A model generated the notes under the pieces. That model was not told the origin of the DNA and did no database searches. It saw nothing but the letters and a program-made list of their open reading frames with translations. From positions 8,990 through 32,989 of the forward strand of contig PAAV01000050.1 in the NCBI GenBank assembly GCA_002699485.1: DNA of 24,000 bases, read 5' to 3'. Below, one piece after another: positions 3,466-22,818 of the stretch; within the stretch, counting starts at the first letter, position 1; each line of letters starts with the position of its first letter. Made by a program: the position numbers and the translations under genes. The DNA is from Chloroflexota bacterium. GTDB taxonomy: Bacteria; Chloroflexota; Dehalococcoidia; Lucifugimonadales; UBA2962.

Positions 3466-3477
3466 ATTTCTTATATC
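3459..3477. terminator. AT-rich palindrome spanning the convergent stop codons of SDR-2 and the 2-hydroxyacid dehydrogenase
   Basis: GATATAA-ATTTC-TTATATC, a 7-bp stem with a single G:C pair and only a short T-run after it. Very weak as a terminator. Confidence 0.2.
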
Positions 3478-4451
3478 TTTGCTCTCGTTTCCCCAACCAC
3501 CTCTTTGTTATACAAGTTCTCAGGCATTTTCCCTGAAAGCACATCAGCTATTGAACCTGCAGCTCTTGATTGAAGCTCAACTGTAGATTCAGGCGAGTAG
3601 AAAGCTACATGCGGTGACACAATGACATTATTCATTTTAAATAGTTTGTTGTTATTTTCAGGATGATCTGATTCCAGCACATCAAGTCCTGCTCCAGCAA
3701 TCTCACCTGATTCTAATGCGCTAATTAAAGCAGTTTCATCGATAAGTGGGCCTCTGGCACAATTTATAATAAAACAGTTTTTCTTCATAACACGGAACTC
3801 GTTAATGCTAATCATTCCTTTGGTTTCGTTATTGAGGGGAGAGTGAATGGTAACGAAATCAGATTTTTCCAGTAGGTCTCTTATAGGAACAACATCTATG
3901 TCCTTATTAACTAAATCACTTGCGACGAAAGGATCTGTAACTAAAACGTGCATTCCGAAAGCTTTGGCTTTCTCAGCAACATTACGACCAATGCGACCAA
4001 ACCCTATTACACCTATCGTGCTACCTCGCAGCCTATTCATAGGTAAATTTAAATCAACCGAGCCCCATCCTTTCATCTTTGTGTTGTAGTCAAAGTTGAT
4101 CACCTGTCGATTCCAGGCAAGCAAAAATGAAAAAACGTGATCCGCAACCTCATCAACACAATAATCGGGAACATACGTCACGGCAATGCCTAACTCAGTA
4201 GCTTTATTGACAGCAATGTTATCTACTCCTACTCCATATCTTGCAATTACTTTTAGATTAATTGCGTTCTCTATAACCTTATCTGTAACTTTTGCAAAGC
4301 AGGTCAATATCCCGTCAACATCACCTGCTAGTTCTGTTAAAGTTTCTTCACTTCCATCTGGAGCAATAACTAGCTCAACGTCAGTTAGTTCTAGAGCTTT
4401 TTTCTCTGGATCTAAATTCGGGAAAACATAATCTGTTATCAAAATTTTCAT
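3471..4451 (-). CDS. D-isomer-specific 2-hydroxyacid dehydrogenase family protein (hydroxypyruvate/glyoxylate reductase or PGDH-like)
   Basis: NAD-binding GVIGFGRIGRNVAEKAKAFG, plus a catalytic-region Arg (NCARGPLID), an acidic residue (AGLDVLESDHPE) and a His (SPHVAF). I prefer the start MKILITDYVF (ATG at 4449-4451) over the track ORF start at 4553, which would overlap the upstream gene by 62 nt. An alternative ATG lies at 4472. Confidence 0.82.
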   Translation of the reverse strand: MKILITDYVFPNLDPEKKALELTDVELVIAPDGSEETLTELAGDVDGILTCFAKVTDKVIENAINLKVIARYGVGVDNIAVNKATELGIAVTYVPDYCVDEVADHVFSFLLAWNRQVINFDYNTKMKGWGSVDLNLPMNRLRGSTIGVIGFGRIGRNVAEKAKAFGMHVLVTDPFVASDLVNKDIDVVPIRDLLEKSDFVTIHSPLNNETKGMISINEFRVMKKNCFIINCARGPLIDETALISALESGEIAGAGLDVLESDHPENNNKLFKMNNVIVSPHVAFYSPESTVELQSRAAGSIADVLSGKMPENLYNKEVVGETRAKI

Positions 4452-4491
4452 GCTGTTACCATCATTTTTCATATTTGGCGCTCTCGCAGCC

Positions 4492-6111
4492 CTACAATTT
4501 AAAATCCATTCTTTTGAATTGACAACCCTCAACAAACAGGTCGAAGAAATCATCAGTTGTTTCCAATTCTATATGCTCCACTTTCAAAACCAAGTCTTCG
4601 ATACGATTCCTTAACTTTCCGGACAATAGCATAATCGTTGCTCCCTCAAGTGACGCATTTCCAACCTTTTCAATGTCGTCTAAATTGACATTGGCTAAGA
4701 AGCCAATTTCAATAGCATTTTTCGCATTTATATAATTCGCAAAACCTCCAGCAAGATAAAACTTCGCGAGCTCTTTAATCGGCTGACCAAATGCACGCAA
4801 AACAATCCATTGTCCACAAAAATTTGCAGACTTCGCTTGAGCTAAAGCAGATATATCAGCTCTAGACAATGTTAACCCTTGTTCACTAGCAAATGTGAAT
4901 TCATTTTCTCCACTATTAAAAACACCCAATTCCGTCATTCTTTGTGTTCTTCGTAATTCAGCTAGCAGATCGATTAATCCAGAGCCACAAATACCTTCAG
5001 GATCAGCATTACCAATTGTTTCAATTTCTACACCGCTGTTATCCATCCTCACTGCCTCAACCGCCCCTTCATATCCAGGCATTCCAAATTTAATTTCTCC
5101 ACCTTCAAAAGCAGGACCTGCCGGGCATGAAGCTGCCAAAATACGATGTCTGTTGCCGATAATCACCTCGGTGTTTGTGCCAACATCCACTAACATGACA
5201 CTTTCGTCCATCTCATCCATTCCTATAGCCAAAAGATCTGCCGAAACGTCAGACCCAACATGACTAGCAATTAATGGCCCACCATAAACGTTTGCTTTCG
5301 GAAAAATTCTAATTCCCAAATCATTTGCAATAGCATTTAAGGCTGTTGATTTACGTTCCCCCTGAATAAACTCCATTTCTATTTTAGATTTATATGGTTT
5401 TTCGCCTATTGTTTGTACATCAACCCCAAATACTATGTCCCTCATAGTCGAGTTACCAACCAATACTGCTTCATAAATGCGTCTTCTATGGATTTTGAGC
5501 TTGCGACACATATCACCAATTTCAAAATTAATCGATGACAGCACAACTTTTCGCAACTCCCCATGGTATGGTCCACCATCGTACGAAATTCGATGCATCA
5601 CGTCGCTACCCCCAAACTTTTGTGGGTTTTCAAAGGAAGTTGTGAATACAGTGACCTTTTTTTCTAAATCTACTAGATTCATTGCTACGGTAGTTGTTCC
5701 CAAGTCGATAGCTAATCCATAGATACTTCCCTTATATTCTTCTAGTCGTTGGTCTCTATAACATACAAAATCTCCCGATTTACGAGTGATTGGATCAGCG
5801 ACAATTTTACGTTTAATCGAACTGGTGAGAATTTTAGGCTGGCGTCGCAAAACGGAAAATTCTAGATTCTCAGCGGCGTCCGAAATCGCCGCCTGGCATG
5901 CGAGTCTATATGTATCTTTAAGGAATTTCTCTGATTCTGTTCTATCTGTTAATCCATCAGAGCCTTGTTTAATTTCAACTATGCACTCATGACACTCACC
6001 GGTTCGTCCACAAGAAGTTGGAACTCTTATTTTTAGGTCATCCGCATAATCAAATACAGTTTTCCCCTGAAGTAGAGGTATTTGCTTTTTACCATAAATT
6101 AGCGGAGACAA
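4492..6111 (-). CDS. Reductive activator of corrinoid proteins (RACo/RamA-like): N-terminal [2Fe-2S] ferredoxin domain plus ASKHA-fold ATPase (DUF4445)
   Basis: 539 aa. The N-terminal Cys cluster (SCGRTGECHEC ... RLACQ) resembles a plant-type 2Fe-2S ferredoxin. It is followed by ASKHA phosphate motifs (GLAIDLGTTTV, LVDVGTNTE) and a C-terminal LAGGFANYI. The start is TTG (6109-6111). The first in-frame ATG lies about 140 codons downstream and would delete the ferredoxin domain. Confidence 0.85.
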   Translation of the reverse strand: MSPLIYGKKQIPLLQGKTVFDYADDLKIRVPTSCGRTGECHECIVEIKQGSDGLTDRTESEKFLKDTYRLACQAAISDAAENLEFSVLRRQPKILTSSIKRKIVADPITRKSGDFVCYRDQRLEEYKGSIYGLAIDLGTTTVAMNLVDLEKKVTVFTTSFENPQKFGGSDVMHRISYDGGPYHGELRKVVLSSINFEIGDMCRKLKIHRRRIYEAVLVGNSTMRDIVFGVDVQTIGEKPYKSKIEMEFIQGERKSTALNAIANDLGIRIFPKANVYGGPLIASHVGSDVSADLLAIGMDEMDESVMLVDVGTNTEVIIGNRHRILAASCPAGPAFEGGEIKFGMPGYEGAVEAVRMDNSGVEIETIGNADPEGICGSGLIDLLAELRRTQRMTELGVFNSGENEFTFASEQGLTLSRADISALAQAKSANFCGQWIVLRAFGQPIKELAKFYLAGGFANYINAKNAIEIGFLANVNLDDIEKVGNASLEGATIMLLSGKLRNRIEDLVLKVEHIELETTDDFFDLFVEGCQFKRMDFKL

Positions 6112-6156
6112 ATTAACTTATACTCTTTTTTATTACACGTATCATGATGTGTCATA

Positions 6157-6405
6157 CTACAAATCCCACGCGTCACGATAATCGAGTTTGTCACTACCAA
6201 CACATAAAGCTAATTGGTCTTTACCATCAACGAAGTCTTGATTACGGCATCCAAACTTGGCAGTACATCTATCCTTAACGTTTTTGTAAGGGCATCGTTT
6301 TTTAGATATATCAACAGCAGAATCTGAAATACTACTATATATTTTCTGTAATTTATCAATACTTGCCTGATAACGATCTTTATCAAAATTTTTATTCTGA
6401 TTCAC
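6157..6405 (-). CDS. Hypothetical small protein with four Cys (82 aa)
   Basis: The ORF fills almost the whole metF-RACo gap. It has a GTG start 9 nt after the metF stop, with an AAGGT Shine-Dalgarno-like sequence overlapping that stop. The protein contains no internal Met. Cys pattern: RCPYKNVKDRCTAKFGCRN...LALCVG. I recognise no family. Confidence 0.45.
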   Translation of the reverse strand: MNQNKNFDKDRYQASIDKLQKIYSSISDSAVDISKKRCPYKNVKDRCTAKFGCRNQDFVDGKDQLALCVGSDKLDYRDAWDL

Positions 6406-6414
6406 GGCTTACCT

Positions 6415-7350
6415 TTAAATGTTATTGTTACGATTATCGAGTATACCTGATTCTGCAATTATCTCCGGCACTAATGCCTCCTGCCCATATGCCATGATAT
6501 GAATACCTTTAACTCCAGGCATTTCGATCACCTGCTGTACGATTTCCAGACATATCTTTTTTCCTTCAGCGACTTGGTCTTTCGCCTGCTTGAGTCTACT
6601 AATGATCGCATCAGGTATGACAACACCAGGCACATTGGACCGCATCCGTTGAGCAGATTTTGCGGATTTCAAAGGCCCGACGCCAATTAAAATAAATACT
6701 TTTTCTGATAATCCCATGTCATTCACTGAATCCATATAAGTTTTCAACCGAGGCACATCGAAGCAGTATTGGGTCTGAATAAATTTTGCACCAGCATTTA
6801 TTTTTTTCTTTAATCTTAACGGCCTAAAATCATAGGGAGGTACAAACGGGTTGGCGGCAGCACCTAAAAAGAACTTCGGGTTTGATTCAAGTTTTCTACC
6901 AGAAAGGAATCTACCTTCTTCTTCCATTGTTCTGGCCGTTTTTAACAGGTTAATTGAATCCATATCAAACACGGGTTTTGCTTGGGGGTGATCTCCCGTA
7001 TGCACTCCATCTCCAGTTAAACACAATACATTTTTTATATTTAATGCAGCTGCACCAAGCAACTCTCCCTGCATAGCAATTCTATTGCGATCTCTACAAG
7101 ACATTTGCATAACCGGTTCATAGCCAGCTTTTTGCAATATTGCAGATACAGCTATACTAGATAAATGTACGCTTGCGCCAGCAGCATCAGTAGCATTTAT
7201 TCCATCACAAAGTGAGCCCAGAACTAAAGCGTTACGATGAACGGATTCCGGCAAGTGGCTATCCGGCGAATTTAGTTCAGCAGTAACAGCAAGCTGGCCA
7301 GACCGTAAAACACGCTCTAATTTTGATTGGTCTTCAACTTGACCACTCAT
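6415..7350 (-). CDS. metF: Methylenetetrahydrofolate reductase, MetF subunit (MetVF type)
   Basis: 311 aa of MTHFR TIM-barrel type (VTAELNSPDS ..., CLTGDG, FFLGAAANPF, GAKFIQTQYCFD). The ATG at 7350 lies inside the 3' end of metV, giving a 17-nt overlap. Confidence 0.85.
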   Translation of the reverse strand: MSGQVEDQSKLERVLRSGQLAVTAELNSPDSHLPESVHRNALVLGSLCDGINATDAAGASVHLSSIAVSAILQKAGYEPVMQMSCRDRNRIAMQGELLGAAALNIKNVLCLTGDGVHTGDHPQAKPVFDMDSINLLKTARTMEEEGRFLSGRKLESNPKFFLGAAANPFVPPYDFRPLRLKKKINAGAKFIQTQYCFDVPRLKTYMDSVNDMGLSEKVFILIGVGPLKSAKSAQRMRSNVPGVVIPDAIISRLKQAKDQVAEGKKICLEIVQQVIEMPGVKGIHIMAYGQEALVPEIIAESGILDNRNNNI

Positions 7351-7789
7351 CTTGAATTATCTCCGTTCTACCAGACAACTGGTTCGCCCATGCTGATGTG
7401 TCCTGTAATCTTCGATCCAATGGAGCCATAATTACATTTATATTAGGCCCGTATATTGGCATCTGTTTTGATCTTTCCCATGCAGTCACCCATACACACG
7501 TCATTTCAGGTATGACTTCGCAATTACCATTGTTCCTAACACCGCCGCATGGTCCATTTCTCAAGCTTTTTGGACATGTCATTGGACAAGTCATACCAGT
7601 ATTATGTAATACACATTGACCACACATTTGGCAATCAAATACGGGCTTTTTGAATAAGTGTTCTGCAAGAATTAATCCTCTGTTTATAATACGACTACGT
7701 ACAATGAGCGATTTTCCTGGACTTAGAAAGGCAACTGTCCCTTTATAAATTAGTTCCAGTAAAGCTGGATGTAGTCGAAACATTCTCAT
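7334..7789 (-). CDS. metV: Methylenetetrahydrofolate reductase C-terminal-domain protein (MetV-like, Cys-rich)
   Basis: 151 aa with the Cys-rich block CQMCGQCVLHNTGMTCPMTCPKSLRNGPCGGV characteristic of the MTHFR_C/MetV family. It is immediately upstream of and overlapping metF. Confidence 0.8.
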   Translation of the reverse strand: MRMFRLHPALLELIYKGTVAFLSPGKSLIVRSRIINRGLILAEHLFKKPVFDCQMCGQCVLHNTGMTCPMTCPKSLRNGPCGGVRNNGNCEVIPEMTCVWVTAWERSKQMPIYGPNINVIMAPLDRRLQDTSAWANQLSGRTEIIQDEWSS

Positions 7790-7849
7790 AATAAATTAAT
7801 CTTCTGAATTCTATTAATTTGTCTGCAGTGACAGATTATTGAGGCTATT

Positions 7850-8581
7850 TTATTGAGCTAGAACTATCTCTTTTACTAAAGAAACGCATTCCATCGCATC
7901 TTTACCATAACCGTCCGCCCCCATGTCTTCAGCAAATTCCTGAGTTACGGCAGCGCCTCCTATTATCATTTTAAATTCTTCACGAACACCATTGTCTTCG
8001 AAAAACTCTATTGTCCGACCCATATTTGGCATTGTAGTAGTTAATAATGCTGACATGCCCACAACTTGAGCTTTAAATTCAACAGCTGCATCCATGAATT
8101 CATCAGGCTTGGTATCAACTCCGAGATCCTCGACTACAAACCCAGCTCCTCTTAGCATCATTATGCACAAGTTTTTGCCGATATCATGCAGATCACCTTT
8201 GACCGTTCCCATGATCACTATTCCCAGGGGTTCTACGCCAGAAGCTGACAAAATAGGTTCAATATGAGCCATACCTGCTTTCATGGCTCTCGCAGCAATT
8301 AAAACTTCAGGAACAAATATGATGTTGTCACGAAATTTAATCCCTACTATTGCCATGCCTGATATCAATCCATCATCAAGAATATCATTAGCTGAATATC
8401 CTTGATCGAGCGCAGTTTTTGTTAATTCATCAATTTTTTCATTGTTCCCATATACGAGATTGAATGCCATTTCCTGCATCAGCATGTCATCTTTTGTAAA
8501 TAAATCTTGAATATGATTCTGTTCAAAAGGCTTTGCTATATATTGCATTTCGCCAAGCAATCCTTCATGGATTATCGCCAT
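7850..8581 (-). CDS. Cobalamin-binding corrinoid protein (B12-binding cap plus Rossmann domain; methyltransferase cognate carrier)
   Basis: 243 aa. It has the DxHxxG motif (GDLHDIGKN), SxL (MSALLTTT) and GG (IIGGAAV), i.e. the His-on/base-off cobalamin-binding signature. A strong SD (GAGGAGA, complement of 8590-8596) lies 8 nt upstream of the ATG. Confidence 0.9.
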   Translation of the reverse strand: MAIIHEGLLGEMQYIAKPFEQNHIQDLFTKDDMLMQEMAFNLVYGNNEKIDELTKTALDQGYSANDILDDGLISGMAIVGIKFRDNIIFVPEVLIAARAMKAGMAHIEPILSASGVEPLGIVIMGTVKGDLHDIGKNLCIMMLRGAGFVVEDLGVDTKPDEFMDAAVEFKAQVVGMSALLTTTMPNMGRTIEFFEDNGVREEFKMIIGGAAVTQEFAEDMGADGYGKDAMECVSLVKEIVLAQ

Positions 8582-8644
8582 TTATGTTGTCTCCTCGTGA
8601 AGCTTTGGTAGTACGTCTGAAGCGTTACTTAAGTTGGGAAGGTA

Positions 8645-9709
8645 TTATTTTACTACTAGCTGGCCCTGGTTATAAGCTTTTATGTAATTCATACAAAATT
8701 CATCTTCACCTAAAAGCATATCTCGTGCGAATCGATGCGGTTCCAAATCTAGATTTAAAGATGAAGCTTTCATTAAATTAGTTTGTATGGGATCTACAAT
8801 CCCGCTATTAGCACCCACATCTAAAGAAAGCTTTATAAATGTCTCATTAATGATCTTTCGCATTGGGAGCCCAAATGAGACATTACTAAGCCCACCGGTA
8901 ATTTTAATGGCGTCACCTTTTTCTTCTCTCAGCATCTTAACAGCATTTAAATAATCCGTTCCAAAAGAACTGTCGACAGAAATCGGAAATACTAAAAGGT
9001 CTACAAATATATCTTCTTCTTTTATCCCTCTGCGCTCAGCCTCTTCCAATAACCTTAAAACATTTTCTACCCTTTCAATGTCATTTGTCGGCATACTCGA
9101 CTCACCAGAAGCTGTAATTATGGTTTTTGTATCATATTTTTCTACAAGGTCAAATGTCTCGAGTCTTTCTAGTGCAACTGAATTTATTAAGGTCTTATCC
9201 CGAGAAGAATCTATCTCTGCAAGCCCAGCAGCAATAATTTCAGAATTAGAAGAGTCAACACTTATGGGTACGGTAGAGACTTCCTGCACTGCGTTTACAA
9301 GCCACCGCATAGCTTCTTTTTGTATGTCTAGTTTGTACGATACTTCATCGACATTTACATCAAGAAAGTCAGCCCCAGCACTTATCTGACGCAAGGCTTC
9401 ACTCTGAACAAAAGAGGCGCTTTCACGTTGTGTTTTTTTATCTCCATTAATAGCTTCTAAAACCACTATCATGAAATGTTTTATTTGACCTTGCTCGTAG
9501 GGCTGTGTTTTCTTGAACCAATCAGGAACAGAGATATTATTTTGGTTGCCTTCGCTATCCACATACAGAATTATCTCTTCACCATTTTGTAAGGTTTTAT
9601 GCCTTTTACCATCACGCAAAACAATCCTGGTGGTATGAATGTTCTCCCCGATAATTACAAATTTTTCCATTTCAGACAAAGCTGATTTAACCACCTTTTG
9701 TCCATTCAC
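8645..9709 (-). CDS. Pterin-binding methyltransferase (methyl-corrinoid:tetrahydrofolate, MetH pterin domain/AcsE/MtgA-like)
   Basis: Motifs IIGENIHTTR near the N-terminus and TGGLSNVSFGLP match the pterin-binding (DHPS-like) barrel of MetH/AcsE. The start is uncertain. The track start is GTG 9709, which overlaps the upstream gene by 23 nt. TTG 9679 or ATG 9670 (MEKFVIIGENIH) are more family-typical. Confidence 0.85.
   Translation of the reverse strand: MNGQKVVKSALSEMEKFVIIGENIHTTRIVLRDGKRHKTLQNGEEIILYVDSEGNQNNISVPDWFKKTQPYEQGQIKHFMIVVLEAINGDKKTQRESASFVQSEALRQISAGADFLDVNVDEVSYKLDIQKEAMRWLVNAVQEVSTVPISVDSSNSEIIAAGLAEIDSSRDKTLINSVALERLETFDLVEKYDTKTIITASGESSMPTNDIERVENVLRLLEEAERRGIKEEDIFVDLLVFPISVDSSFGTDYLNAVKMLREEKGDAIKITGGLSNVSFGLPMRKIINETFIKLSLDVGANSGIVDPIQTNLMKASSLNLDLEPHRFARDMLLGEDEFCMNYIKAYNQGQLVVK
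9662..9680 (-). repeat. Copy A of a 19-nt exact direct repeat (minus-strand reading TTTGTCTGAAATGGAAAAA) at the 5' end of the pterin-binding methyltransferase gene
   Basis: The plus-strand string tttttccatttcagacaaa is identical to 10701-10719. It encodes (L/M)SEMEK and contains both TTG and ATG start candidates. Confidence 0.9.
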
Positions 9710-10718
9710 GGACTGCTTTGGGTATTTCCATAAGGTTTTCTAGTCGTGTAGCTAAAGGAATAGCGCATTCAGGAGCTATCATATCTACTCCGGCTTCCAG
9801 ACATTTGTTAACTTCATTTCTAACTTCTTCAGGACCCTTAGAATACAGTGTGACCGGGTTATTTATATTGCCAACAAGTCCAATTTTTCCTTCAGCAATT
9901 TTCACCGCCTCAGCAGGATCATTTTTTGAATCAAAATGGAAGCTAGCCATGCCACTCTGGCCGATATAATCTAATCTGTCTAATGTATAGCCACAAATAT
10001 GTAATATCAATGGCACATTCAACCTCTCAGCCATTTCTTGATGAAGTTCTAAAAGAAACCTTTTGTAATATTCTCCAGAAACGAGATCTCCTGTTGCGTG
10101 GTCTGGAAACGTTAAAACATCAGCACCTGCTGCAATCTGAGCCAAACCAAACATCACTGATATCTCTTTAAGTTTATCCAATGCACGTTTAGTCATTTCA
10201 GGATCATCTATGCTCATTAGCAAAAATTTTTCAACCCCGAAAACATGGTACGCGAGAGTCCAAGGTCCCATCGTCTTGCCAACAATCGCGACTTCTTTTT
10301 TAAAGTTCTGCGCCAATATTTCAATTGATCTAATAATAGTTGAGGTATCTTGATGTTCTAAGAATCCTGGAGGTATCTTCACATCTTCAGGAGTGTCCCA
10401 AATTGGCTTACTCATGCGTACAGTCGGCCAATTATCTTTCTGTTCCCATTGCATTTCACAGCCAAGCGCCGAAGATTCTTGTATTATCGAAAAATATGGT
10501 GATATAGAGTCAAATCCTAATTCAGTGTATCCGGTCGCAGCAAGGCTAGCATTCAACTCAGGATTTCTATTCGCTTCAGGGAAGGGTGCATCCACCAAAT
10601 CCATTAGCTCGACAGTGGCTATATTTGTCGGATTACATACTGGAGTCCGATCAACTTTTTCCCCAGATAAAGCTGCCAAGACTCGATCACGGGAGTTCAT
10701 TTTTTCCATTTCAGACAA
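9687..10718 (-). CDS. UroD-superfamily, MtaA/MtbA/CmuA-like zinc methyltransferase (paralog 1)
   Basis: 343 aa of URO-D-like TIM barrel. It has a His-x-Cys (LILHICGYT) and a second Cys 76 residues later (IAPECAIPL), the zinc-ligand arrangement described for MtaA/MtbA-type corrinoid methyltransferases. Start candidates are TTG 10718 (AAGGA SD 7 nt upstream), ATG 10709 and ATG 10700. Confidence 0.85.
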   Translation of the reverse strand: MSEMEKMNSRDRVLAALSGEKVDRTPVCNPTNIATVELMDLVDAPFPEANRNPELNASLAATGYTELGFDSISPYFSIIQESSALGCEMQWEQKDNWPTVRMSKPIWDTPEDVKIPPGFLEHQDTSTIIRSIEILAQNFKKEVAIVGKTMGPWTLAYHVFGVEKFLLMSIDDPEMTKRALDKLKEISVMFGLAQIAAGADVLTFPDHATGDLVSGEYYKRFLLELHQEMAERLNVPLILHICGYTLDRLDYIGQSGMASFHFDSKNDPAEAVKIAEGKIGLVGNINNPVTLYSKGPEEVRNEVNKCLEAGVDMIAPECAIPLATRLENLMEIPKAVREWTKGG

Positions 10719-10719
10719 A
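10701..10719 (-). repeat. Copy B of the 19-nt exact direct repeat at the 5' end of UroD-family methyltransferase paralog 1
   Basis: Identical 19-mer to 9662-9680, in the same reading frame relative to the start candidates (TTG TCT GAA ATG GAA AAA). Confidence 0.9.
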
Positions 10720-10777
10720 ATATTTTCCTTATTAATGTCGACACGTTACAAGTTTATTGTTTTTTATCATCAACTTA

Positions 10778-11824
10778 TTAATTATTTCTACCATTGATGT
10801 AAACACTTTTGGGATTTGCGTCACTCCACGCTTTGACTGCTTTAGGTATTTCTAATATGTTTTCCAGTTTAGTTTGAAGAGGCAAGGCGCATTCAGGAGC
10901 AATCAAATCTACCCCTGCGTCTAAACACCTAGTTACCTCTTTACGAATCTCTTCCGAGCCTTTTGAAAACATTGTTATAGGACAATTTATGTTACCTACA
11001 AGTCGCATTCTGCCAGATGCTATATCCATGGCTTTTTGTGGATCATTTTTTGAATCAAAGTGAAAGCATGACATTCCAGTTTCACAAATGTAATCCAATC
11101 TATCTAACGTGTATCCACAAATATGTAAAATTAAAGGAACGGGCAACCGTTCGGCCATTTCAGCGTGCAAATCCTTTAAAAAAGTTTTGTAATAGTCTCC
11201 AGAAACCAAGTCTCCTGTAGCGTGATCAGGAAACATCAAAACATCCGCACCTGCTGCAATCTGAGCGAGGCCAAACATCACAGATATTTCTTTAAGTTTA
11301 TTTAATGCGATCTTGGTTAGCTCAGGGTCATCAATACTCATCAATAAAAAATTCTGGACTCCAAAAGTGTGATAACCGAGAGACCAAGGTCCCATAGTTT
11401 TACCAACGATACAAGCTTCAGCACCTATTTCCGTTTTAAGGATTTCTGTTGCTTTCAACACACATAATGTATCTGGATGCTCTAAAAACCCCGGGGGTAT
11501 TTTAATCTGATCAGGATGGTCCCAGATTGGCCTGCTCATTACGACCGTGGGCCAATTATCTTTCTGTTCCCATTGAATTTCACAGCCCAATGCAGAGGAT
11601 TCCTGGACAATCGTGTAATGGTGGTAAGTAGAATCAAATCCAAGCTCATTAAACCCAGTTGCTGCTAAACGAGCATTTAATTCTGCATCCCTACATGCGT
11701 CAGGAAAAGAAGCATTCACAAAATCCATTAGCTCCACGGTCATTATTGATCCAGGATTAATGACTGCGGGCCTATCTACAGGATCCCCTTTTAATGCTGC
11801 TAATACTCTCTCTCTTGAATTCAT
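10778..11824 (-). CDS. UroD-superfamily, MtaA/MtbA/CmuA-like zinc methyltransferase (paralog 2)
   Basis: 348 aa, collinear with paralog 1 and roughly two-thirds identical by eye. It has the same HICGYT and APECALPL motifs and long identical peptides (KLKEISVMFGLAQIAAGADVL, FPDHATGDLVSG, QESSALGCE, WEQKDNWPTV). Confidence 0.85.
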   Translation of the reverse strand: MNSRERVLAALKGDPVDRPAVINPGSIMTVELMDFVNASFPDACRDAELNARLAATGFNELGFDSTYHHYTIVQESSALGCEIQWEQKDNWPTVVMSRPIWDHPDQIKIPPGFLEHPDTLCVLKATEILKTEIGAEACIVGKTMGPWSLGYHTFGVQNFLLMSIDDPELTKIALNKLKEISVMFGLAQIAAGADVLMFPDHATGDLVSGDYYKTFLKDLHAEMAERLPVPLILHICGYTLDRLDYICETGMSCFHFDSKNDPQKAMDIASGRMRLVGNINCPITMFSKGSEEIRKEVTRCLDAGVDLIAPECALPLQTKLENILEIPKAVKAWSDANPKSVYINGRNN

Positions 11825-11839
11825 TTAAATCAATCTCTC

Positions 11840-12505
11840 TTACTGAGAGAACCCTAATGTTCCTGTAGTCATTTGACCCCGGGATTCATCCGACTCAAGC
11901 ATATCTTCCGTGCCGCTCACGTTACGGGCATAAGGCAGTACACTTCTGACTAGTTGATCATAACGACTGGAACATGGAAATTTTAACTCTGTATCGCCAA
12001 TCTTTTCCATCTCTCCGTATCGAACTAAACCAGCTACGGTTGCTCTAATCCTCAGTTGCGGCCTTTCAGCTTCTCCTTCACCCCCAACCGTGTAAATCCA
12101 AGTACCATTTTCTTCCCTAGGAGTTGCAAACAAAACCATGTCACTCTTTAAATCCTTCACTTCGATTCTTCCATCAGGTATTGGGATCAGTGGAGATTTT
12201 TCAACTGCATTTCTAGCAATGAATTTAAACGCGCGTGGATAAACAGTTCCTCCAGGGAAATAAAATTCGTGAGGGTTATCTTTTGATATAGCCAAATCCC
12301 CGAATCCCACAATGCGATTCCGAATTTCTTCTAACCTTTCAGAAACATCCTTGCCTTCCTTAAAACTCCATACCGTTACTACCCCGTCCTTTTCATAAAA
12401 ACCGACAGACATTTCATCACCATAAGGGTCGATTGAAATTAATTCTAAACATCTGCCAAGCCTGGCAAGAATTTGACTCACAGATTCTTTAGTATTTGAT
12501 GCCAT
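11840..12505 (-). CDS. Hypothetical protein (221 aa), no family recognised
   Basis: Long ORF in the operon frame, 12 nt downstream of the Hcy-methyltransferase stop and 15 nt upstream of UroD paralog 2. It looks soluble, with no hydrophobic segments, and I see no cofactor motifs. Confidence 0.6.
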   Translation of the reverse strand: MASNTKESVSQILARLGRCLELISIDPYGDEMSVGFYEKDGVVTVWSFKEGKDVSERLEEIRNRIVGFGDLAISKDNPHEFYFPGGTVYPRAFKFIARNAVEKSPLIPIPDGRIEVKDLKSDMVLFATPREENGTWIYTVGGEGEAERPQLRIRATVAGLVRYGEMEKIGDTELKFPCSSRYDQLVRSVLPYARNVSGTEDMLESDESRGQMTTGTLGFSQ

Positions 12506-12517
12506 TTAGTTCCCCTT

Positions 12518-13417
12518 TTACTCGTTAATCAAACTAGCAATTTGTTTAATATGATCAGGCGTCGTTCCACAACATCCGCCCACAATATTGATCCCCATAT
12601 CTATTAACTTAGAGAATCCCTCTGACATGTAATCTGGAGTTTCTGGATATATGATTTGCCCTTGACGTATCTCTGGAATTCCTGCATTTGAATTAATCCA
12701 TACATACCCTTCTCCGCATTCTCTAAACCTTTTTGCTAATTCAGACATAATTTCTATACCATTACCGCAATTCGCCCCTACTATATCAGCATCAGCCGCG
12801 AATAATTCAGTGAAACATTTTTCTGGTGTATCACCCATCATTGTGAAAAAACCACGAGGACCCTTATCAAATGTAGTTAGTGCCGCTACCGGAAGGTCTG
12901 TGTTTTCTTTTGTTGCACTAATTGCTATCTTAGCTTCTTCCAAAGAAATCATTGTTTCAATAATGATTCCATCTACCCCACCTTTTGCTAATGCTAATAT
13001 TTGCTGTTTGAACGCAGCATATATATCTTTAGCGCTAGTTGTCCCAACCGGTTCAATCAATTCACCTGTTGGGCCAACAGAACCAAACACATATCTTTCC
13101 TTTTTACCTAAGTTGGGGTTGAGACTCGCGGATTTAGCTAACTGAGCTGCTTGAAAATTAATCTCATCAATTTTGGCTCCTTGATCATATCGACTTTGAA
13201 CATAAAAATTGCCTCCAAAAGAATTCGTTTGAACCAAGTCGCTTCCCGCTTCAAAATAATCCTTCGCCATTCCTTTTACAACATTTGCGTCTGTTATATT
13301 CATTAGTTCGGGGTCGCCGCCGGGCTCCAAACCTCTTGCCTGCAAATATGTACCAGTAGCGCCATCAGCCAATAAAGTGTTTTTATTTGCCAGTTTAGAA
13401 AGAATTTCCATTAACAA
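12518..13417 (-). CDS. Homocysteine S-methyltransferase domain protein (MetH N-terminal module/BHMT/MmuM family)
   Basis: 299 aa. N-terminal LLADGATGTYL, plus zinc-ligand Cys motifs GANCGNG and VGGCCGTTPDHI, exactly as in the Hcy-binding barrel of MetH. Confidence 0.88.
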   Translation of the reverse strand: MLMEILSKLANKNTLLADGATGTYLQARGLEPGGDPELMNITDANVVKGMAKDYFEAGSDLVQTNSFGGNFYVQSRYDQGAKIDEINFQAAQLAKSASLNPNLGKKERYVFGSVGPTGELIEPVGTTSAKDIYAAFKQQILALAKGGVDGIIIETMISLEEAKIAISATKENTDLPVAALTTFDKGPRGFFTMMGDTPEKCFTELFAADADIVGANCGNGIEIMSELAKRFRECGEGYVWINSNAGIPEIRQGQIIYPETPDYMSEGFSKLIDMGINIVGGCCGTTPDHIKQIASLINE

Positions 13418-13441
13418 AAACCTCTTATTAAAATTATTGAG

Positions 13442-13786
13442 TTAGGATTCAAACCAATGATCAATGGATCCTGGCCGAGTATCTCTTTTTTCTTCTCTAT
13501 GTAAATCCCGTAGTCTGGAAACTAAATCAACAGGAAACCCAGTATTGTAGTGTTCTGACATTCTCTTTGCTGAGCCTCTGGCATCTCCTTCAACTTCTAC
13601 TTGCTCGCTCCATTGCCATCCATCCAAATAATCATCTGTGCCATATGAACCTTCAAGCATTGCTAATGCGTCAACTGCCTCTTGAAAACGCGGATCAAGT
13701 AAAACAGATGTTTTCCCAGAATCATCTTCTGTTTGGATTTGTATCGGTATCTCTTTCCAATACAAAATTCGCATTTTAGTATTCAT
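13442..13786 (-). CDS. Small conserved protein resembling the Pfam 'Virulence_fact' family (function unknown)
   Basis: 114 aa. N-terminal RILYWKEIPIQIQ and central GSYGTDDYLDGW resemble, from memory, the YWRDIPAQV ... GTD.YLEGW pattern of that family. It is the first gene of the minus-strand block. An alternative start is ATG 13774. Confidence 0.5.
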   Translation of the reverse strand: MNTKMRILYWKEIPIQIQTEDDSGKTSVLLDPRFQEAVDALAMLEGSYGTDDYLDGWQWSEQVEVEGDARGSAKRMSEHYNTGFPVDLVSRLRDLHREEKRDTRPGSIDHWFES

Positions 13787-13974: not shown

Positions 13975-15435
13975 ATGTCAGGTTTTTTCCGATTGAGCAA
14001 ACTATCATCCGACCAAAATTTAGCATTTGAGCCAGCAGTTAATCTGATTTCTATGCTTAGGAAAAAAGAATTCTCTTCGGTGGAATTAACACGCCTTTTC
14101 CTAGAGAGAATTGAAAAGTTCGATAATAAGCTCCATTCTTATTTAACAGTTGACGCTGAAAATGCGCTGTCTGTAGCAACTAAAGCTGATAAACGGCTGA
14201 TGTCTGGTAATGTTGTAGGACCTCTTGATGGCTTACCGATATCCATAAAAGATTTAGAGATTACAGCAGGACTAAAAACCACAGGCGGGTCTCAAATATT
14301 TAAAGATAGAGTGCCTAAAGAAGATTCAGTTGTAGTAGAACGAATCAAAGATGCTGGAGCCGTGATCCTGGGAAAGACAAATACTCCTGAGTTTGGACTA
14401 CTTGGTGTGACGTCCAACTTACTAGGAGAACATTGTCGAAATCCATGGAATATTACAAAAACCTCAGGGGGTTCTTCAGGTGGAGCTGCTTCAGCATTAG
14501 CTGCAGGGCTATGCCCAGTATCAATTGGAGGAGACGGCGGAGGGTCTATTAGAATACCGAGTAGTTTTTGTGGTGTATTTGGCTTAAAACCGACTCAAGG
14601 AAGAGTTCCAAAGTATGGCGGTGCTGGGCTGCCAATAGCAGCGAACCACCTATCACAAACAGGGCCAATTAGTAGGAGCGTATCCGATTCAGCTTTGATT
14701 ATGCAAATAATATCAGGGTTTGATGCGCGTGATCCCTCAGGTTTTATCGACGAAATAACCCATGACACTTTCAGTCCAACTAGTACCGTCAATGGACTTA
14801 GGATCGGCTGGAGCTCTGACCTGGGTTTTGCTGCCGTTGATAGCGAGGTTTTAAACATATGCCAAGAAGCAACTACTTCACTGAAAAATGCAGGCTGTGA
14901 AATTGATAATGCAGATATTGTGTTGAATGAACCTTTTGGGCCTTTTAGAACTCTGTTCTCAGCTATGGCTTATACTGCTTACAGTCAGTTATTAGAAAAC
15001 TATCCTGATCAGCTTACCGACTACGCTGCTAATTGTATTGAAAATGGTGCTTCTGTAACCGGAGCAGAATACGCTGCTGCCCTAGGACATGTAGATCAAA
15101 TTAAATCGATATTTAACTCCGCTTTCGAGCAATTTGATGTAATAGTCACTCCAACCCTCGCGGTTGAAGCATTCGATGCATTAGGACCGTTGGAAACCAT
15201 AAATGAAATAGATGGACGTGAAGTCGATCCTTGGTGGGGGTACTTTCCATTCACTTTTCCAATAAACTTAGCTGGTTTACCAGCAGCGTCTGTACCTGCA
15301 GGGTTCAGTAAAAACAAGCTTCCAATAGGACTGCAGATAATTGGACGTCCTCGAGATGAAAAGACTGTTTTAAGTATCTCGGCTGCTCTAGAAAAAATAA
15401 GCCCTTGGGCCGATATTAAACCATCCTTAAGTTAA
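13975..15435 (+). CDS. Amidase-signature family amidase (non-GatA paralog)
   Basis: 486 aa with GGSSGGAASALAAG and GGDGGGSIRIPSSFCGVFGLKPTQGRVP, the amidase signature with a Ser-cisSer-Lys type core. It is divergent from the corrinoid block. Confidence 0.88.
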   Translation: MSGFFRLSKLSSDQNLAFEPAVNLISMLRKKEFSSVELTRLFLERIEKFDNKLHSYLTVDAENALSVATKADKRLMSGNVVGPLDGLPISIKDLEITAGLKTTGGSQIFKDRVPKEDSVVVERIKDAGAVILGKTNTPEFGLLGVTSNLLGEHCRNPWNITKTSGGSSGGAASALAAGLCPVSIGGDGGGSIRIPSSFCGVFGLKPTQGRVPKYGGAGLPIAANHLSQTGPISRSVSDSALIMQIISGFDARDPSGFIDEITHDTFSPTSTVNGLRIGWSSDLGFAAVDSEVLNICQEATTSLKNAGCEIDNADIVLNEPFGPFRTLFSAMAYTAYSQLLENYPDQLTDYAANCIENGASVTGAEYAAALGHVDQIKSIFNSAFEQFDVIVTPTLAVEAFDALGPLETINEIDGREVDPWWGYFPFTFPINLAGLPAASVPAGFSKNKLPIGLQIIGRPRDEKTVLSISAALEKISPWADIKPSLS

Positions 15436-15455
15436 CTCAGCTTAACTTGTTTTTG
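15429..15455 (+). terminator. Weak intrinsic-terminator-like hairpin after the amidase gene
   Basis: AAGTTAA-CTCAGC-TTAACTT (7-bp stem, mostly A/T) followed by GTTTTTG. The arms contain the stop codons of both convergent genes (TAA 15433-15435; complement of 15442-15444). Confidence 0.35.
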
Positions 15456-15933
15456 CTTCAAAATTTGCGCAGGCCTCACAAACTGATTCGGGTATCAAAT
15501 TCCACTTCATCAAGTATCCAAAAACGAAGCAACCAGCACAAAACCCCACAATAGATTCCAGAAATGCAAACCCTGCTAGCACTGCGAGAACAATACGGTA
15601 TGGCAGAGACGAATCAACAACAAAGAAAAGAATCAATGCAGTTAGAGAAAAGATTAATCCCACAAATTGGGCAAACCTTTTTGGCGGGCCGGCAACGGGG
15701 CGATTTTTACCAATAATCGGCACTAATAAACGAATAGCTATCTGGCCCATAGGGCTTAAAGTAGGTCCAGTTGCCACACGAGCACAAAATCCATAAAGCA
15801 ATACGGCAATGATGATCCATTGATCCGTGAATATTGCAGATAATGTTAATGCCATTACCATTCCTGCTACACAGCGAGCTGCCCATTCATTCACTGGATT
15901 TGGAAAACTAAACACCTTCGTTAAATTAGACAA
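15442..15933 (-). CDS. DUF4395-like integral membrane protein
   Basis: 163 aa. N-terminal FPNPVNEWAARCVAG followed by about four hydrophobic helices and C-terminal Cys pairs (FCAGCF, CEAC). This resembles DUF4395 from memory. Confidence 0.6.
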   Translation of the reverse strand: MSNLTKVFSFPNPVNEWAARCVAGMVMALTLSAIFTDQWIIIAVLLYGFCARVATGPTLSPMGQIAIRLLVPIIGKNRPVAGPPKRFAQFVGLIFSLTALILFFVVDSSLPYRIVLAVLAGFAFLESIVGFCAGCFVFGYLMKWNLIPESVCEACANFEAKTS

Positions 15934-19116: not shown

Positions 19117-20292
19117 ATGGGTTTAAATATGTCTTCAGATAAGATCAGAAAAAATTTTAATAAGCCATTATCAGCCAAGCGTATTGTGGTGAAAATCGGC
19201 AGCGCTTTACTTACACACAAAACTGAGGCCATTAATAAGGCTATAGTTGAACGTCTAGTAACTGAAATTGCAATGCTTTCAAGAAATGGTATTGAGGTTA
19301 TATTGGTTTCCTCTGGCGCAATTGCATCAGGCAGAATTGCACTGAATATTGCGGATAAGATCCATGATATCTCTACGAAACAAGTATTAGCTGCAGTCGG
19401 ACAAGGACTGTTGCTGCAAATGTATGAACAAACATTTAACAAGCACGGCATAAGAATAGCGCAAGCTTTGCTAACAAGGCATGACATGCAAGAGCGTTTG
19501 GGTTACCTCAATGTAAGGAATACATTACTAAAACTTATTGAGCTAAATGTTATCCCTGTTGTCAACGAAAACGATGTGGTCAACATTGAACAACTTTCTG
19601 AAACCATAATTGGTGACAATGATACTCTTTCCGCTTTAGTTGCAAACCTTGTTGATGCGGATATATTAATCATATTAGGCAAGCTTGACGGCCTATATAG
19701 TAGCGACCCTCATATAGATAAAAATGCCAGCTTTATCTCTAATGTAGATAACATTGATAAAGCCGTACTTGCTATGGGGGGAGATTCATATTCGGAAGAT
19801 GGTATAGCGGTAGGTTACGGAGGTATGGCAGCAAAACTGCAGGCTGCCAAAATGGTTACATCAGCTGGTGCTACCACAATCATGGCTAGTGGACTGCAAG
19901 AAGATGTTTTAACTAAACTAATGGCTGGTGAAGATATAGGTACATGGTTTTATCCAACGGGCGACCGGATAGAAAGTAGAAAACGATGGATGCTAAGTGG
20001 AATCGCACAAAAAGGCAATGTAATAATTGACAGCGGTGCTGCAGGAGCACTGCGTCTTAAAACAAATAGCCTTTTACCAGCCGGTATTTTAACGGTGAAT
20101 GGATCATTTTATAGAGGAGATGTGGTAACCATTTCTGATGAAAGCGAAGTTGCAATTGCTGCGGGAATTAGTAATTACAGTTCAGAAGAAATAAATCAGG
20201 TTAAGGGCAACCATTCCGAAAAAATCAGAACCACGCTAGGATACGATTATGGTGATGAGATAGTACATCGCAGCAATATGGTTAAGTTATAG
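19117..20292 (+). CDS. proB: Glutamate 5-kinase (with C-terminal PUA domain)
   Basis: Motifs RIVVKIGSALLT, VSSGAIA, NENDVV, GDNDTLSA and GGMAAKLQAA, plus a PUA-like C-terminus (GDVVTI). An alternative start is ATG 19129 (MSSDK). proA follows. Confidence 0.92.
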   Translation: MGLNMSSDKIRKNFNKPLSAKRIVVKIGSALLTHKTEAINKAIVERLVTEIAMLSRNGIEVILVSSGAIASGRIALNIADKIHDISTKQVLAAVGQGLLLQMYEQTFNKHGIRIAQALLTRHDMQERLGYLNVRNTLLKLIELNVIPVVNENDVVNIEQLSETIIGDNDTLSALVANLVDADILIILGKLDGLYSSDPHIDKNASFISNVDNIDKAVLAMGGDSYSEDGIAVGYGGMAAKLQAAKMVTSAGATTIMASGLQEDVLTKLMAGEDIGTWFYPTGDRIESRKRWMLSGIAQKGNVIIDSGAAGALRLKTNSLLPAGILTVNGSFYRGDVVTISDESEVAIAAGISNYSSEEINQVKGNHSEKIRTTLGYDYGDEIVHRSNMVKL

Positions 20293-20304
20293 CAAAGAAA
20301 AATA

Positions 20305-21942: not shown

Positions 21943-22818
21943 TTAGCGAAGAAGTTTATTCGCAAATCCATTTAACTGCGTTAAAGCCTCGTCCTCCGAA
22001 GCTGTCTTAAGTTCTAAAATCACCCTATCGGCACCGTTTGTTGCTAAATCCTCTATCAACTTTGGATCCGCTGGTTGGTGGAAAGCAGAAATTTCAAATT
22101 CTCCTGGATCAACGCCAGCCTGATTAGCTAATTCTGTTAATGTTGCTCGGCCACTACTTATTTCCTCAACTGTCGATGTTGTCGGCATCCATCCATTGCC
22201 ATATTCAATGATCCTTTTAAATACGTTACGGGCATTGCCTCCCAACATAACTGGAGGATGTGGGCGTTGAACCGGCCTAGGAAACGAATATACAGCCGGA
22301 AAATCATAAAACTCGCCATGAAACTCACTTTCCACCTGTGTCCACAATTCTTTCATAGCTAAAATGGATTCTCGTGTCTGGCTCCAGCGCCTTTCAAAAT
22401 TCCCTCCCATTATTTCGGTTTCTTCTTTACACCAACCAGCCCCTATACCAAAAATAAATCGTCCATTTGAAATAAGGTCGAGTGTTGCAACTTCTTTGCC
22501 CAACAATAGTGGGTTTCTTTCTGGGACTAAACATATGCCTGTAGCTAATTTTAATTTTGTAGTCACGCCGCTAGCTTTACCTAAAGTGACGAATGGATCT
22601 ACCGTGTCATAATACTGCTTTGGTAATTCTTCAGCCCCTTCACTGCCAGGCTTTAAGTATGACTGCATTGTCCTGAATTTCGGTATGACAGGATGTTCAG
22701 GTAACCATAAGGATTCAAAACCCAGATTTTCAGCCTCCACGGCTAATTTCGCAATGTCTATAGAGTAGTCAGTTAGGAAGCAATATATGCCTATTTTCAA
22801 ATCTTTTTCCTTAGCCAA
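21943..22818 (-). CDS. Luciferase-like (LLM class) flavin/F420-dependent oxidoreductase
   Basis: 291 aa. N-terminal AENLGFESLWLPEHP, central GRFIFGIGAGW and the overall length are typical of LLM-class TIM-barrel oxidoreductases. The cofactor cannot be assigned from sequence by eye. Confidence 0.8.
   Translation of the reverse strand: MAKEKDLKIGIYCFLTDYSIDIAKLAVEAENLGFESLWLPEHPVIPKFRTMQSYLKPGSEGAEELPKQYYDTVDPFVTLGKASGVTTKLKLATGICLVPERNPLLLGKEVATLDLISNGRFIFGIGAGWCKEETEIMGGNFERRWSQTRESILAMKELWTQVESEFHGEFYDFPAVYSFPRPVQRPHPPVMLGGNARNVFKRIIEYGNGWMPTTSTVEEISSGRATLTELANQAGVDPGEFEISAFHQPADPKLIEDLATNGADRVILELKTASEDEALTQLNGFANKLLR

Follow-up and report, generated by a model that had tools for sequence, protein, structure and literature searches.

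A conserved corrinoid methyl-transfer locus of SAR202 Chloroflexota that combines split methionine synthase modules with MtaA-type methyltransferases

Gene content of the locus and identity of its modules

We analysed a 24,000-nucleotide (nt) stretch, hereafter the window, of contig PAAV01000050.1 (positions 8,990 to 32,989; GenBank assembly GCA_002699485.1) from a Chloroflexota bacterium of SAR202 group II. The closest genomes are SAR202 group II metagenome-assembled genomes (MAGs), with homologs named Chloroflexi, Dehalococcoidia or SAR202. A first-pass annotation of this DNA had described a corrinoid methyl-transfer supercluster, and the open reading frame (ORF) list of the window does give twelve ORFs in a row between 3471 and 13786, all on the minus strand. 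Domain calls were checked by Pfam, NCBIfam and PDB sequence searches, and every domain that had been named was recovered. From the first gene of the operon to the last, the features are as follows.

13442..13786, minus: Virulence_fact (PF13769) protein of 114 amino acids (aa), the operon's first gene (Pfam 4.9e-12)
12518..13417, minus: homocysteine-binding S-methyltransferase module of 299 aa, MetH homocysteine-domain or MtgE-like (S-methyl_trans 9.7e-64)
11840..12505, minus: U221, an orphan of 221 aa with no family match
10778..11824, minus: UroD1, an MtaA/CmuA-like zinc methyltransferase and lineage-specific paralog (URO-D 3.3e-60)
9687..10718, minus: UroD2, an MtaA/CmuA-family zinc methyltransferase, the ancestral copy, of the P-E-C subclade (URO-D 3.1e-65)
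8645..9709, minus: pterin-binding methyl-tetrahydrofolate:corrinoid methyltransferase, like MtgD or an O-demethylase MT2 (Pterin_bind 7.5e-24)
7850..8581, minus: corrinoid protein with cap and Rossmann domains and a DxHxxG motif (B12-binding_2 1.8e-19, B12-binding 3.1e-26)
7334..7789, minus: MetV, the Cys-rich subunit formed by the MTHFR C-terminal domain (PF12225, i.e. MTHFR_C, DUF5981; 1e-26)
6415..7350, minus: MetF, catalytic subunit of methylene-tetrahydrofolate reductase (MTHFR 3.2e-36)
6157..6405, minus: U82, an orphan of 82 aa with no family match
4492..6111, minus: RACo-type ATP-dependent reductive activator, [2Fe-2S] plus ASKHA (Fer2 8.9e-08, Raco_middle 8.2e-38, RACo_C_ter 1.7e-65)
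3471..4553, minus: D-2-hydroxyacid dehydrogenase, like glyoxylate/hydroxypyruvate reductase or phosphoglycerate dehydrogenase (PGDH) (2-Hacid_dh_C 1e-55)

With the longest ORFs the intergenic spacers measure 24, 12, 15, 59, 63, 60, 9 and 45 nt, within the 65 nt given at first pass, and the 17-nt overlap of metV and metF (7334-7350) was likewise borne out. The overlap that had been suspected between a UroD paralog and the pterin methyltransferase involves UroD2 and amounts to 23 nt, provided that the GTG at 9709 is the start. The longest dehydrogenase ORF overlaps RACo by 62 nt; since its orthologs are 331-333 aa long, the start is probably near 4472 (Met28), which would leave a gap of about 19 nt. 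The long form of MetV is supported by its 50-54% identity to proteobacterial MetV proteins (see below), which spans 100-132 aa. Neither the window nor the region ahead of the operon yielded a riboswitch or other Rfam element, the lone weak match being a chance snoRNA hit, and scans for promoters and terminators gave no enrichment over shuffled sequences and were therefore uninformative.

The two URO-D proteins, which are 71% identical to each other, are by their model scores of the MtaA/CmuA type, in line with the first reading, and not HemE decarboxylases. On the MtaA/CmuA family model TIGR01463 (cut-off 235.4 bits) UroD2 reaches 259 bits and UroD1, at 222.9, falls slightly short; UroD2 also exceeds the cut-off of PRK06252 (269.7 against 244 bits). 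Against the HemE model TIGR01464 they reach only 71.2 (UroD2) and 57.3 bits (UroD1) of a required 302.95, and the top PDB match of both is MtaA (4AY7; 1.3e-53 for UroD2, 1.3e-45 for UroD1), with HemE structures at 2.5e-13. Both stay under the equivalog cut-offs for MtaA (NF040654; 240 and 213 of 400 bits) and MtbA (NF041608; 199 and 155 of 600 bits). MtaA was the sole non-HemE match among solved structures, and the comparison with the MtvB/OdmB/MtoB branch was by solved structures alone. Alignment to 4AY7 indicates that the His-x-Cys...Cys zinc site is kept in both proteins (UroD1 reads LHICG / AP(E)C), and these residues are invariant in 88-89 of 89 species orthologs. The third ligand sits in a P-E-C motif in the SAR202 proteins and their nearest relatives, whereas MtaA and most of the remoter family members have P-G-C, or P-A-C / P-S-C.

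Each module of a methionine synthase was found intact. The homocysteine module is nearest to the MetH homocysteine domain of Thermotoga maritima in the PDB (2.5e-43, against 1e-13 for animal BHMT), its zinc ligands Cys217/282/283 are invariant in 72/72 orthologs, and the two halves of PRK08645, a bifunctional homocysteine methyltransferase/MTHFR, are the best models for it and for MetF respectively. The pterin methyltransferase scores 197.7 bits against PRK07535 and is nearest to the Desulfitobacterium hafniense O-demethylase MT2 (4O0Q, 8e-35), followed by MeTr (1e-25) and the MetH folate domain (2e-17); an exact-sequence look-up returned no match. The corrinoid protein, the only B12 carrier in the window, has MtgC_2 as its best NCBIfam model (195.8 bits against a cut-off of 370) and Moorella 1Y80 as its nearest structure (8e-53, MetH B12 domains about 1e-27), and DxHxxG is present in 62/62 orthologs. 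By these scores, the corrinoid protein and pterin methyltransferase are closer to catabolic three-component systems than to MetH. RACo has the complete domain architecture and scores 303.8 bits against the AcsV model, under its cut-off of 800, and Pfam scans found no match to the MetH activation-domain family among the 12 cluster proteins. The nearest structures to the dehydrogenase are the glyoxylate reductases 5AOV and 2DBQ (about 1e-54) and the PGDH 1WWK (1e-52).

The proteins of 114, 221 and 82 aa had initially been listed as small or unknown. This holds for U221 and U82 in that neither matches any Pfam or NCBIfam family even at E = 10, but all three are conserved parts of the operon and the 114-aa protein belongs to PF13769. 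Relatives of U221 are encoded on 335 stretches in a species-level genome collection and form 221 clusters, all from Chloroflexota and every one named hypothetical; the family is restricted to SAR202/Dehalococcoidia. Its AlphaFold2 model (pLDDT 86.6, pTM 0.81) resembles no PDB fold (best Foldseek E-value 0.086, TM <= 0.22), and a profile search against the PDB returned nothing. Cys19 is invariant, and the C-terminal 24 codons (11840-11911) encode a nearly invariant tail, RGQMTTGTLGFSQ, that is predicted to be disordered (pLDDT below 50) and would fit a docking or inserted peptide. U221 was also compared with DUF1638, as a possible divergent member, with Virulence_fact, as a possible repeat of it, and with MetH activation domains; all three identities were rejected, with hhalign probabilities of about 1% or less (0.56% against the Azoarcus DUF1638). 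U82 has four invariant cysteines (C38, C47, C53 and C68; 61 sequences), its gene directly follows that of the corrinoid protein in most related loci, and it matches no PDB sequence; homology to the small Sinorhizobium meliloti ORF between pterin methyltransferase and ASKHA genes was rejected on comparison. No relationship to DUF1638, to Virulence_fact or to that ORF was detectable for either orphan. The Virulence_fact protein (AlphaFold2 model, pLDDT 80) matches no PDB sequence or fold, and a homolog search for domain fusions returned close SAR202 relatives only.

Conservation of the locus across SAR202

An identical gene order was found in 80 species-level SAR202/Dehalococcoidia genomes, and such recurrence places the arrangement far beyond chance. 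The synteny table comprises these 80 loci, 65 of which have enough flank for the following presence counts.

MtaA-type methyltransferase: 60/65 loci (92%)
Homocysteine methyltransferase: 59/65 loci
Virulence_fact protein: 55/65 loci
Corrinoid protein: 54/65 loci
U82: 54/65 loci
RACo: 41/65 loci, in cis
Pterin methyltransferase: 34/65 loci, in cis (48% without)
D-2-hydroxyacid dehydrogenase: 23/65 loci, after RACo (35%)
MetVF: 14/65 loci, in cis (78% without)
Second UroD (UroD1): 12-13/65 loci

The widely kept core thus consists of the Virulence_fact protein, the homocysteine methyltransferase, U221, an MtaA-type methyltransferase, the corrinoid protein and U82, to which RACo, the pterin methyltransferase and the dehydrogenase are frequent additions. 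The terminal dehydrogenase is no bystander but belongs to the conserved unit. MetVF and the second UroD co-occur only in the window's subclade, UroD1 being confined to loci that also carry MetVF. The twelve-gene supercluster of the first-pass annotation does exist, but its complete form is found in 12/65 loci, all within that subclade, and is a derived state, a lineage-specific elaboration. UroD2 (66-97% identity) and the corrinoid protein (59-93%) are the most conserved proteins across the 80 loci; U221, the homocysteine methyltransferase and the pterin methyltransferase show about 42-55% identity outside the window's own subclade, and UroD2 remains 70-77% identical across SAR202 lineages whose other cluster proteins are at 45-55%.

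Other genes also recur within or beside the operon. A DUF4268-type family sits between the U221 and UroD genes, on the same strand, in 35/80 species loci. The inserts of two loci that were scanned (L024, 10790-15517; L027, 11083-16292) carry PIN, DUF4268, HicA, DUF433, DUF3368 and Fic-type genes and resemble a toxin-antitoxin-like insert that recurs, or a hot spot of integration, within a conserved operon; these toxin-antitoxin-like genes led us to reject the insert as a hidden substrate enzyme such as MttB. In four short-variant loci (L028, L043, L065 and L073), where RACo and the pterin methyltransferase are not in cis, arsenic-type genes follow U82, namely a HAD-like hydrolase and MIP channel in L065 and an LMWPc (ArsC-like) protein in L043; clustering puts genes of L073, and partly of L043, in the same arsenic-type families. 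Corrinoid methyltransferases of methanogens have been connected with the demethylation of arsenic in a 2026 preprint, and these neighbours were judged too sparse a clue to build on.

The remaining features of the window flank the operon:

54-1812: gatC-gatA
13975-15435, plus: amidase-signature amidase, the divergent upstream neighbour of the operon
15442-15933: DUF4395 protein
19117-21576: proB-proA
21943-22818: F420-type luciferase-like oxidoreductase
22925-23707: exonuclease III

The amidase gene keeps this divergent position in about 20 species loci of two subclades and may share a regulatory region with the operon. The family assignments of the amidase, gamma-glutamyltransferase and short-chain dehydrogenase/reductase neighbours gave none specific enough to be informative on a methyl donor. 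The operon's immediate neighbours in the window include neither a transporter nor a regulator and the window ORFs scanned include no MttB-type enzyme, in agreement with the first pass.

Direction of methyl transfer and candidate donors

A search with the Virulence_fact protein (tblastn against plasmids) led to clusters in Azoarcus sp. KH32C (pAZKH) and S. meliloti that are ordered corrinoid protein, DUF1638, "virulence factor", MetV, MetF, pterin methyltransferase and ASKHA protein, and that adjoin glycine-betaine transport genes, purU and a trimethylamine-methyltransferase (MttB)-family gene. Identity to the window's proteins is highest for MetF (57%) and MetV (50-54%), followed by the corrinoid protein (45-46%), Virulence_fact protein (32-39%), pterin methyltransferase (32-35%) and RACo (32-34%). 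The split form of MetH with RamA-like and DUF1638 helpers was defined by Price et al. 2018 (PMC5764234). Genetics in Ruegeria pomeroyi has since established that neither glycine-betaine demethylation, by MtgB, nor methionine synthesis, by MtgE, can do without MtgC and a bidirectional MtgD, with MetF2, RamA and DUF1638 co-induced (Mausz et al. 2025, PMC12478193). Since the window's cluster is homologous to this genetically characterised Mtg hub, a methyl hub is a known kind of system. New in the SAR202 variant are the P-E-C MtaA-type methyltransferase, two lineage-specific orphans, a homocysteine module in cis and the linked dehydrogenase. PMC12478193 makes no mention of SAR202, Chloroflexi or MtaA-type enzymes, and we found no description of this locus or its composition in the literature on SAR202/Dehalococcoidia with MtaA, corrinoid, methionine synthase or cobalamin. 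The earlier statement that the exact composition is uncharacterised therefore stands for the literature searched, although the hub logic itself is known from Ruegeria. MetF and MetV (6415-7789) are confined to a single SAR202 subclade and two MAGs that carry the label Acidobacteriota (L072 and L075); this restricted distribution, together with their much greater closeness to the Mtg proteins (50-57% versus 32-46%), suggests lateral acquisition.

We propose, with confidence that is about evenly balanced, that the locus is a SAR202 corrinoid methyl hub that is also a split cobalamin-dependent methionine synthase, with the MtaA-type methyltransferase most likely on the donor side. The single MtgC-like corrinoid protein would cycle between Co(I) and CH3-Co(III). 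The MtaA/CmuA-family zinc methyltransferase, one copy ancestrally and two here, would most likely load this carrier from a small methylated compound, and the MetH-type homocysteine module would accept the methyl group to give methionine. The MtgD-like pterin methyltransferase may exchange methyl groups with tetrahydrofolate in both directions, as in Ruegeria, while in the window's subclade MetVF would join methyl-tetrahydrofolate to methylene-tetrahydrofolate and could run oxidatively. RACo and ATP would repair carrier that has been oxidised to Co(II). The donor may be a 2-hydroxy-carboxylic acid that carries its methyl group as an ether (or thioether); once demethylated, the acid would be a substrate for oxidation by the terminal dehydrogenase. 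The three uncharacterised proteins may have roles of their own. The first-pass annotation had already placed several methyltransferases around one carrier, joining a split methionine synthase to a tetrahydrofolate/MetVF route; the parts for this are recognisable from their sequences, and it is the sharing of the carrier that we infer.

A donor-side role for the MtaA-type enzyme is argued for by analogy with MtgB and by the 23/65 loci that keep the homocysteine methyltransferase, UroD and corrinoid protein without a pterin methyltransferase in cis, a trio that makes a full triad of first methyltransferase (MT1), corrinoid protein (CP) and second methyltransferase (MT2) only if UroD is the donor-side enzyme. 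It also has precedent. Among MtaA/CmuA and UroD-superfamily enzymes, MtsA and MtpA are donor-side methyltransferases that act on thioethers, CmuA and CdmB on methyl halides and MtvB/OdmB on aryl ethers, and some in the superfamily contain zinc. The earlier view that the window holds no substrate enzyme leaves this precedent out of account.

The context of relatives outside SAR202 offers a lead on the donor. In a full-library search the nearest non-SAR202 clusters to UroD2 were 43-48% identical to it, those sharing the P-E-C motif 43-50%, and all ten relatives scanned missed the MtaA/MtbA equivalog cut-offs. One of 595 aa (P0277) is an MtaA-like methyltransferase fused to an MtgC-like corrinoid domain, which we count for the hub. 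Another of 686 aa (P0279) is fused to 3-dehydroquinate synthase (AroB) and may be a gene-calling artefact. Neighbours were tabulated for metagenome loci of these P-E-C relatives, with Pfam scans. A corrinoid protein adjoins the relative in 10 loci, in one case (L155) together with a pterin methyltransferase, RACo and a dehydrogenase. A hydroxy- or sugar-acid gene lies no more than three genes away, often adjacent and on the same strand, in 11 of the 41 loci of at least 5 kb:

D-2-hydroxyacid dehydrogenase: L110, L138, L155 and L167, also L154
LarA-like racemase/epimerase: L130, L148, L153 and L160
GlcD/GlcF-like oxidase: L136, L141 and L160
UxaA-like dehydratase: L148
RraA-like aldolase: L167
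Glycerate kinase, GntP permease and CdaR-type regulator: L111

TRAP genes are also among these neighbours, and the dehydrogenase homologs near non-SAR202 UroD2 relatives are 36-47% identical to that of the window. L111 (3790-10008) carries two P-E-C-type UroD genes in a sugar-acid-style locus, one overlapping the glycerate kinase gene by 4 nt beside a CdaR/PucR regulator and the other behind the GntP permease. As three unrelated enzyme families here converge on 2-hydroxy-acid chemistry, and the SAR202 operon has its own dehydrogenase, it is suggested that a 2-hydroxy-carboxylic acid is either released or consumed by the UroD enzyme. Most simply, though only as a lead, the enzyme would demethylate the methyl ether of such an acid. 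A further step, which we think rather improbable, would make the P-E-C subclade new corrinoid-dependent demethylases of aliphatic methyl ethers that serve SAR202 in the use of marine dissolved organic matter, with U221 and U82 as obligatory subunits. Substrates would then be, e.g., methoxyacetate, O-methyl-glycerate, O-methyl-lactate or O-methylated sugar acids, and the methyl groups would pass into methionine and the folate one-carbon pool via the shared B12 carrier. Among the papers listed by a search on corrinoid demethylation of methoxyacetate, none used the name of that compound.

Several points weigh against the proposed hub and its donor. In the MtaA-family enzymes characterised so far, transfer from CH3-Co to a thiol is thermodynamically favoured, which makes an acceptor-side role quite possible, and for MtpA the transfer from thioether to Co(I) is uphill, cob(I)alamin being loaded from methylmercaptopropionate (MMPA) only at high substrate concentration. 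Absence of the pterin methyltransferase in cis does not equal absence from the genome, as L030 and L074 have it nearby but displaced. The dehydrogenase is in cis in just 35% of SAR202 loci and may instead belong, as a SerA- or hydroxypyruvate-reductase-type enzyme, to one-carbon/serine metabolism, and MetVF can be read as purely anabolic. The hydroxy-acid association of 11/41 is suggestive but a raw count without a background frequency. Some of the P-E-C relatives lack a corrinoid protein nearby and so may work differently; L111, for instance, has none similar to the window's on its 15-kb stretch.

A serious rival, though an unlikely one in our estimation, is that the operon is purely biosynthetic or that UroD has a thiol-methylating exit role. 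MetVF would make methyl-tetrahydrofolate, and the pterin methyltransferase, corrinoid protein, homocysteine module and RACo would amount to a split MetH, with no external donor. The dehydrogenase, SerA- or hydroxypyruvate-reductase-type, would supply or handle one-carbon/serine carbon, and the MtaA-type enzyme would be an accessory outlet by which a second thiol is methylated, or would service the carrier otherwise. Every part of a split MetH is indeed present and intact, UroD2 and the corrinoid protein (about 70-77% and about 59-81% identity across SAR202) are conserved as strongly as housekeeping proteins would be, and the fit of the homocysteine methyltransferase and MetF to the two halves of PRK08645 points the same way, as do PGDH scores nearly matching those for glyoxylate reductase and the leaning of MtaA-family chemistry towards thiol methylation. 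However, this explanation depends on the pterin methyltransferase and MetVF, which 48% and 78% of related loci respectively lack in cis, whereas 92% have the MtaA-type gene. The corrinoid protein and pterin methyltransferase more resemble those of catabolic systems than MetH, the homologous proteobacterial cluster is both catabolic and anabolic, and no S-adenosylmethionine, cobalamin or tetrahydrofolate riboswitch lies upstream of the operon.

Two further explanations retain the hub and change the donor. Its MtaA-type enzyme might, like MtsA and MtpA of methanogens, handle sulfur compounds that carry a methyl group, which would pass to homocysteine and tetrahydrofolate. Candidate donors would be MMPA, dimethyl sulfide, methanethiol, dimethylsulfoniopropionate (DMSP) and the 2-hydroxy-acid thioether/sulfonium pair 4-methylthio-2-hydroxybutyrate (MTHB) and 4-dimethylsulfonio-2-hydroxybutyrate (DMSHB), compounds abundant in seawater. 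The invariant His/Cys/Cys zinc site is typical of thiol/thioether chemistry, MtsA and MtpA belong to the family, and MTHB, as a 2-hydroxy-acid thioether, would also account for the dehydrogenase. Nevertheless, the transfer from a thioether to Co(I) is thermodynamically unfavourable, the P-E-C relatives adjoin sugar-acid/glycerate-type and not sulfur genes, and the conserved surroundings of the SAR202 cluster hold no genes for DMSP or sulfur catabolism, so we regard a sulfur donor as improbable. Very improbable, in our view, is dehalogenation of CH3Cl, CH3Br or CH3I in the manner of CmuA, with the pterin methyltransferase as CmuB and MetVF as MetF2, even though the enzyme falls within the family model TIGR01463, alkyl halides are favourable donors to Co(I), and the cmu layout of methyltransferase, corrinoid protein, pterin methyltransferase and MetF matches. 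The plasmid search by tblastn gave identities of at most 26% and no hit annotated CmuA, with no check made for a cmuA-bearing plasmid in the collection; the halide-specific CdmB is reported to be zinc-independent, whereas the zinc site here is invariant; neither folD nor purU is in cis; and the hydroxy-acid neighbours would be left unexplained.

SAR202 are among the most abundant bacteria of the dark ocean, and what carbon they live on is for the most part a matter of conjecture. A methyl hub that is conserved among them and depends on B12 would link their methionine synthesis to cobalamin supply and would carry the coupling of demethylation to methionine beyond Proteobacteria and beyond MttB-type enzymes. 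The P-E-C MtaA-type methyltransferase may be a specific enzyme that points to a methylated substrate in seawater, and three uncharacterised families (PF13769, U221 and U82) gain a defined functional neighbourhood.

Comparison with known corrinoid systems

The closest parallel is the Mtg system of R. pomeroyi, Phaeobacter inhibens and S. meliloti, in which a corrinoid protein and a pterin methyltransferase have been shown to be common to a demethylase and a separate homocysteine module, as we infer for the window. Both have a RamA/RACo-type activase in place of the MetH activation domain and a MetF paralog in the cluster, while the stand-alone corrinoid protein, pterin methyltransferase and homocysteine module each have their counterpart in the window. 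The methyltransferase in the donor position differs, as the window has an MtaA/CmuA-family enzyme (UroD fold, zinc) where Mtg has the MttB-family MtgB, and no MttB-family ORF was found among the window ORFs or the conserved neighbours that were scanned. No cluster protein of the window matches DUF1638, and the unrelated, SAR202-only U221 and U82 are conserved instead. Moreover, the window has its homocysteine module in cis, no betaine transport genes and a dehydrogenase in last place, and it belongs to the phylum Chloroflexota.

With MtaA, MtbA, MtsA and MtpA of methanogens the window shares the TIGR01463/PRK06252 family, the His-x-Cys...Cys zinc site and a separate corrinoid protein of MtaC/MtgC type. 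Its UroD proteins nevertheless remain under the equivalog cut-offs, carry P-E-C and not P-G-C, and are partnered with a homocysteine module and a pterin methyltransferase. The bacterial host is not known to make coenzyme M. The O-demethylases (MtvABC, OdmABCD and the D. hafniense Dhaf MT1/CP/MT2/AE) and archaeal MtoABCD likewise combine an MT1, a corrinoid protein, a methyltransferase to pterin and a RACo-type activator, the methyltransferase to pterin being a pterin-binding MT2 in the bacterial and the MtrH-like MtoA in the archaeal systems. Their MT1 enzymes belong to the UroD superfamily, and the window's pterin methyltransferase is nearest to Dhaf MT2 (4O0Q), but by solved structures alone the window's UroD proteins are placed in the MtaA/CmuA branch, a homocysteine module is present and aromatic-compound transporters are lacking.

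The Cmu (CmuA/CmuB/MetF2/FolD/PurU) and CdmBCA systems follow the same logic, from a UroD-fold methyltransferase through a corrinoid and a pterin methyltransferase to MetF; the window differs in its separate corrinoid protein with an intact DxHxxG and in having no folD or purU. Canonical MetH, finally, is likewise built from modules for homocysteine, pterin and B12 and shares their catalytic motifs, whereas in the window the modules are split, RACo takes the place of the S-adenosylmethionine activation domain and one or more extra methyltransferases would act on the carrier.

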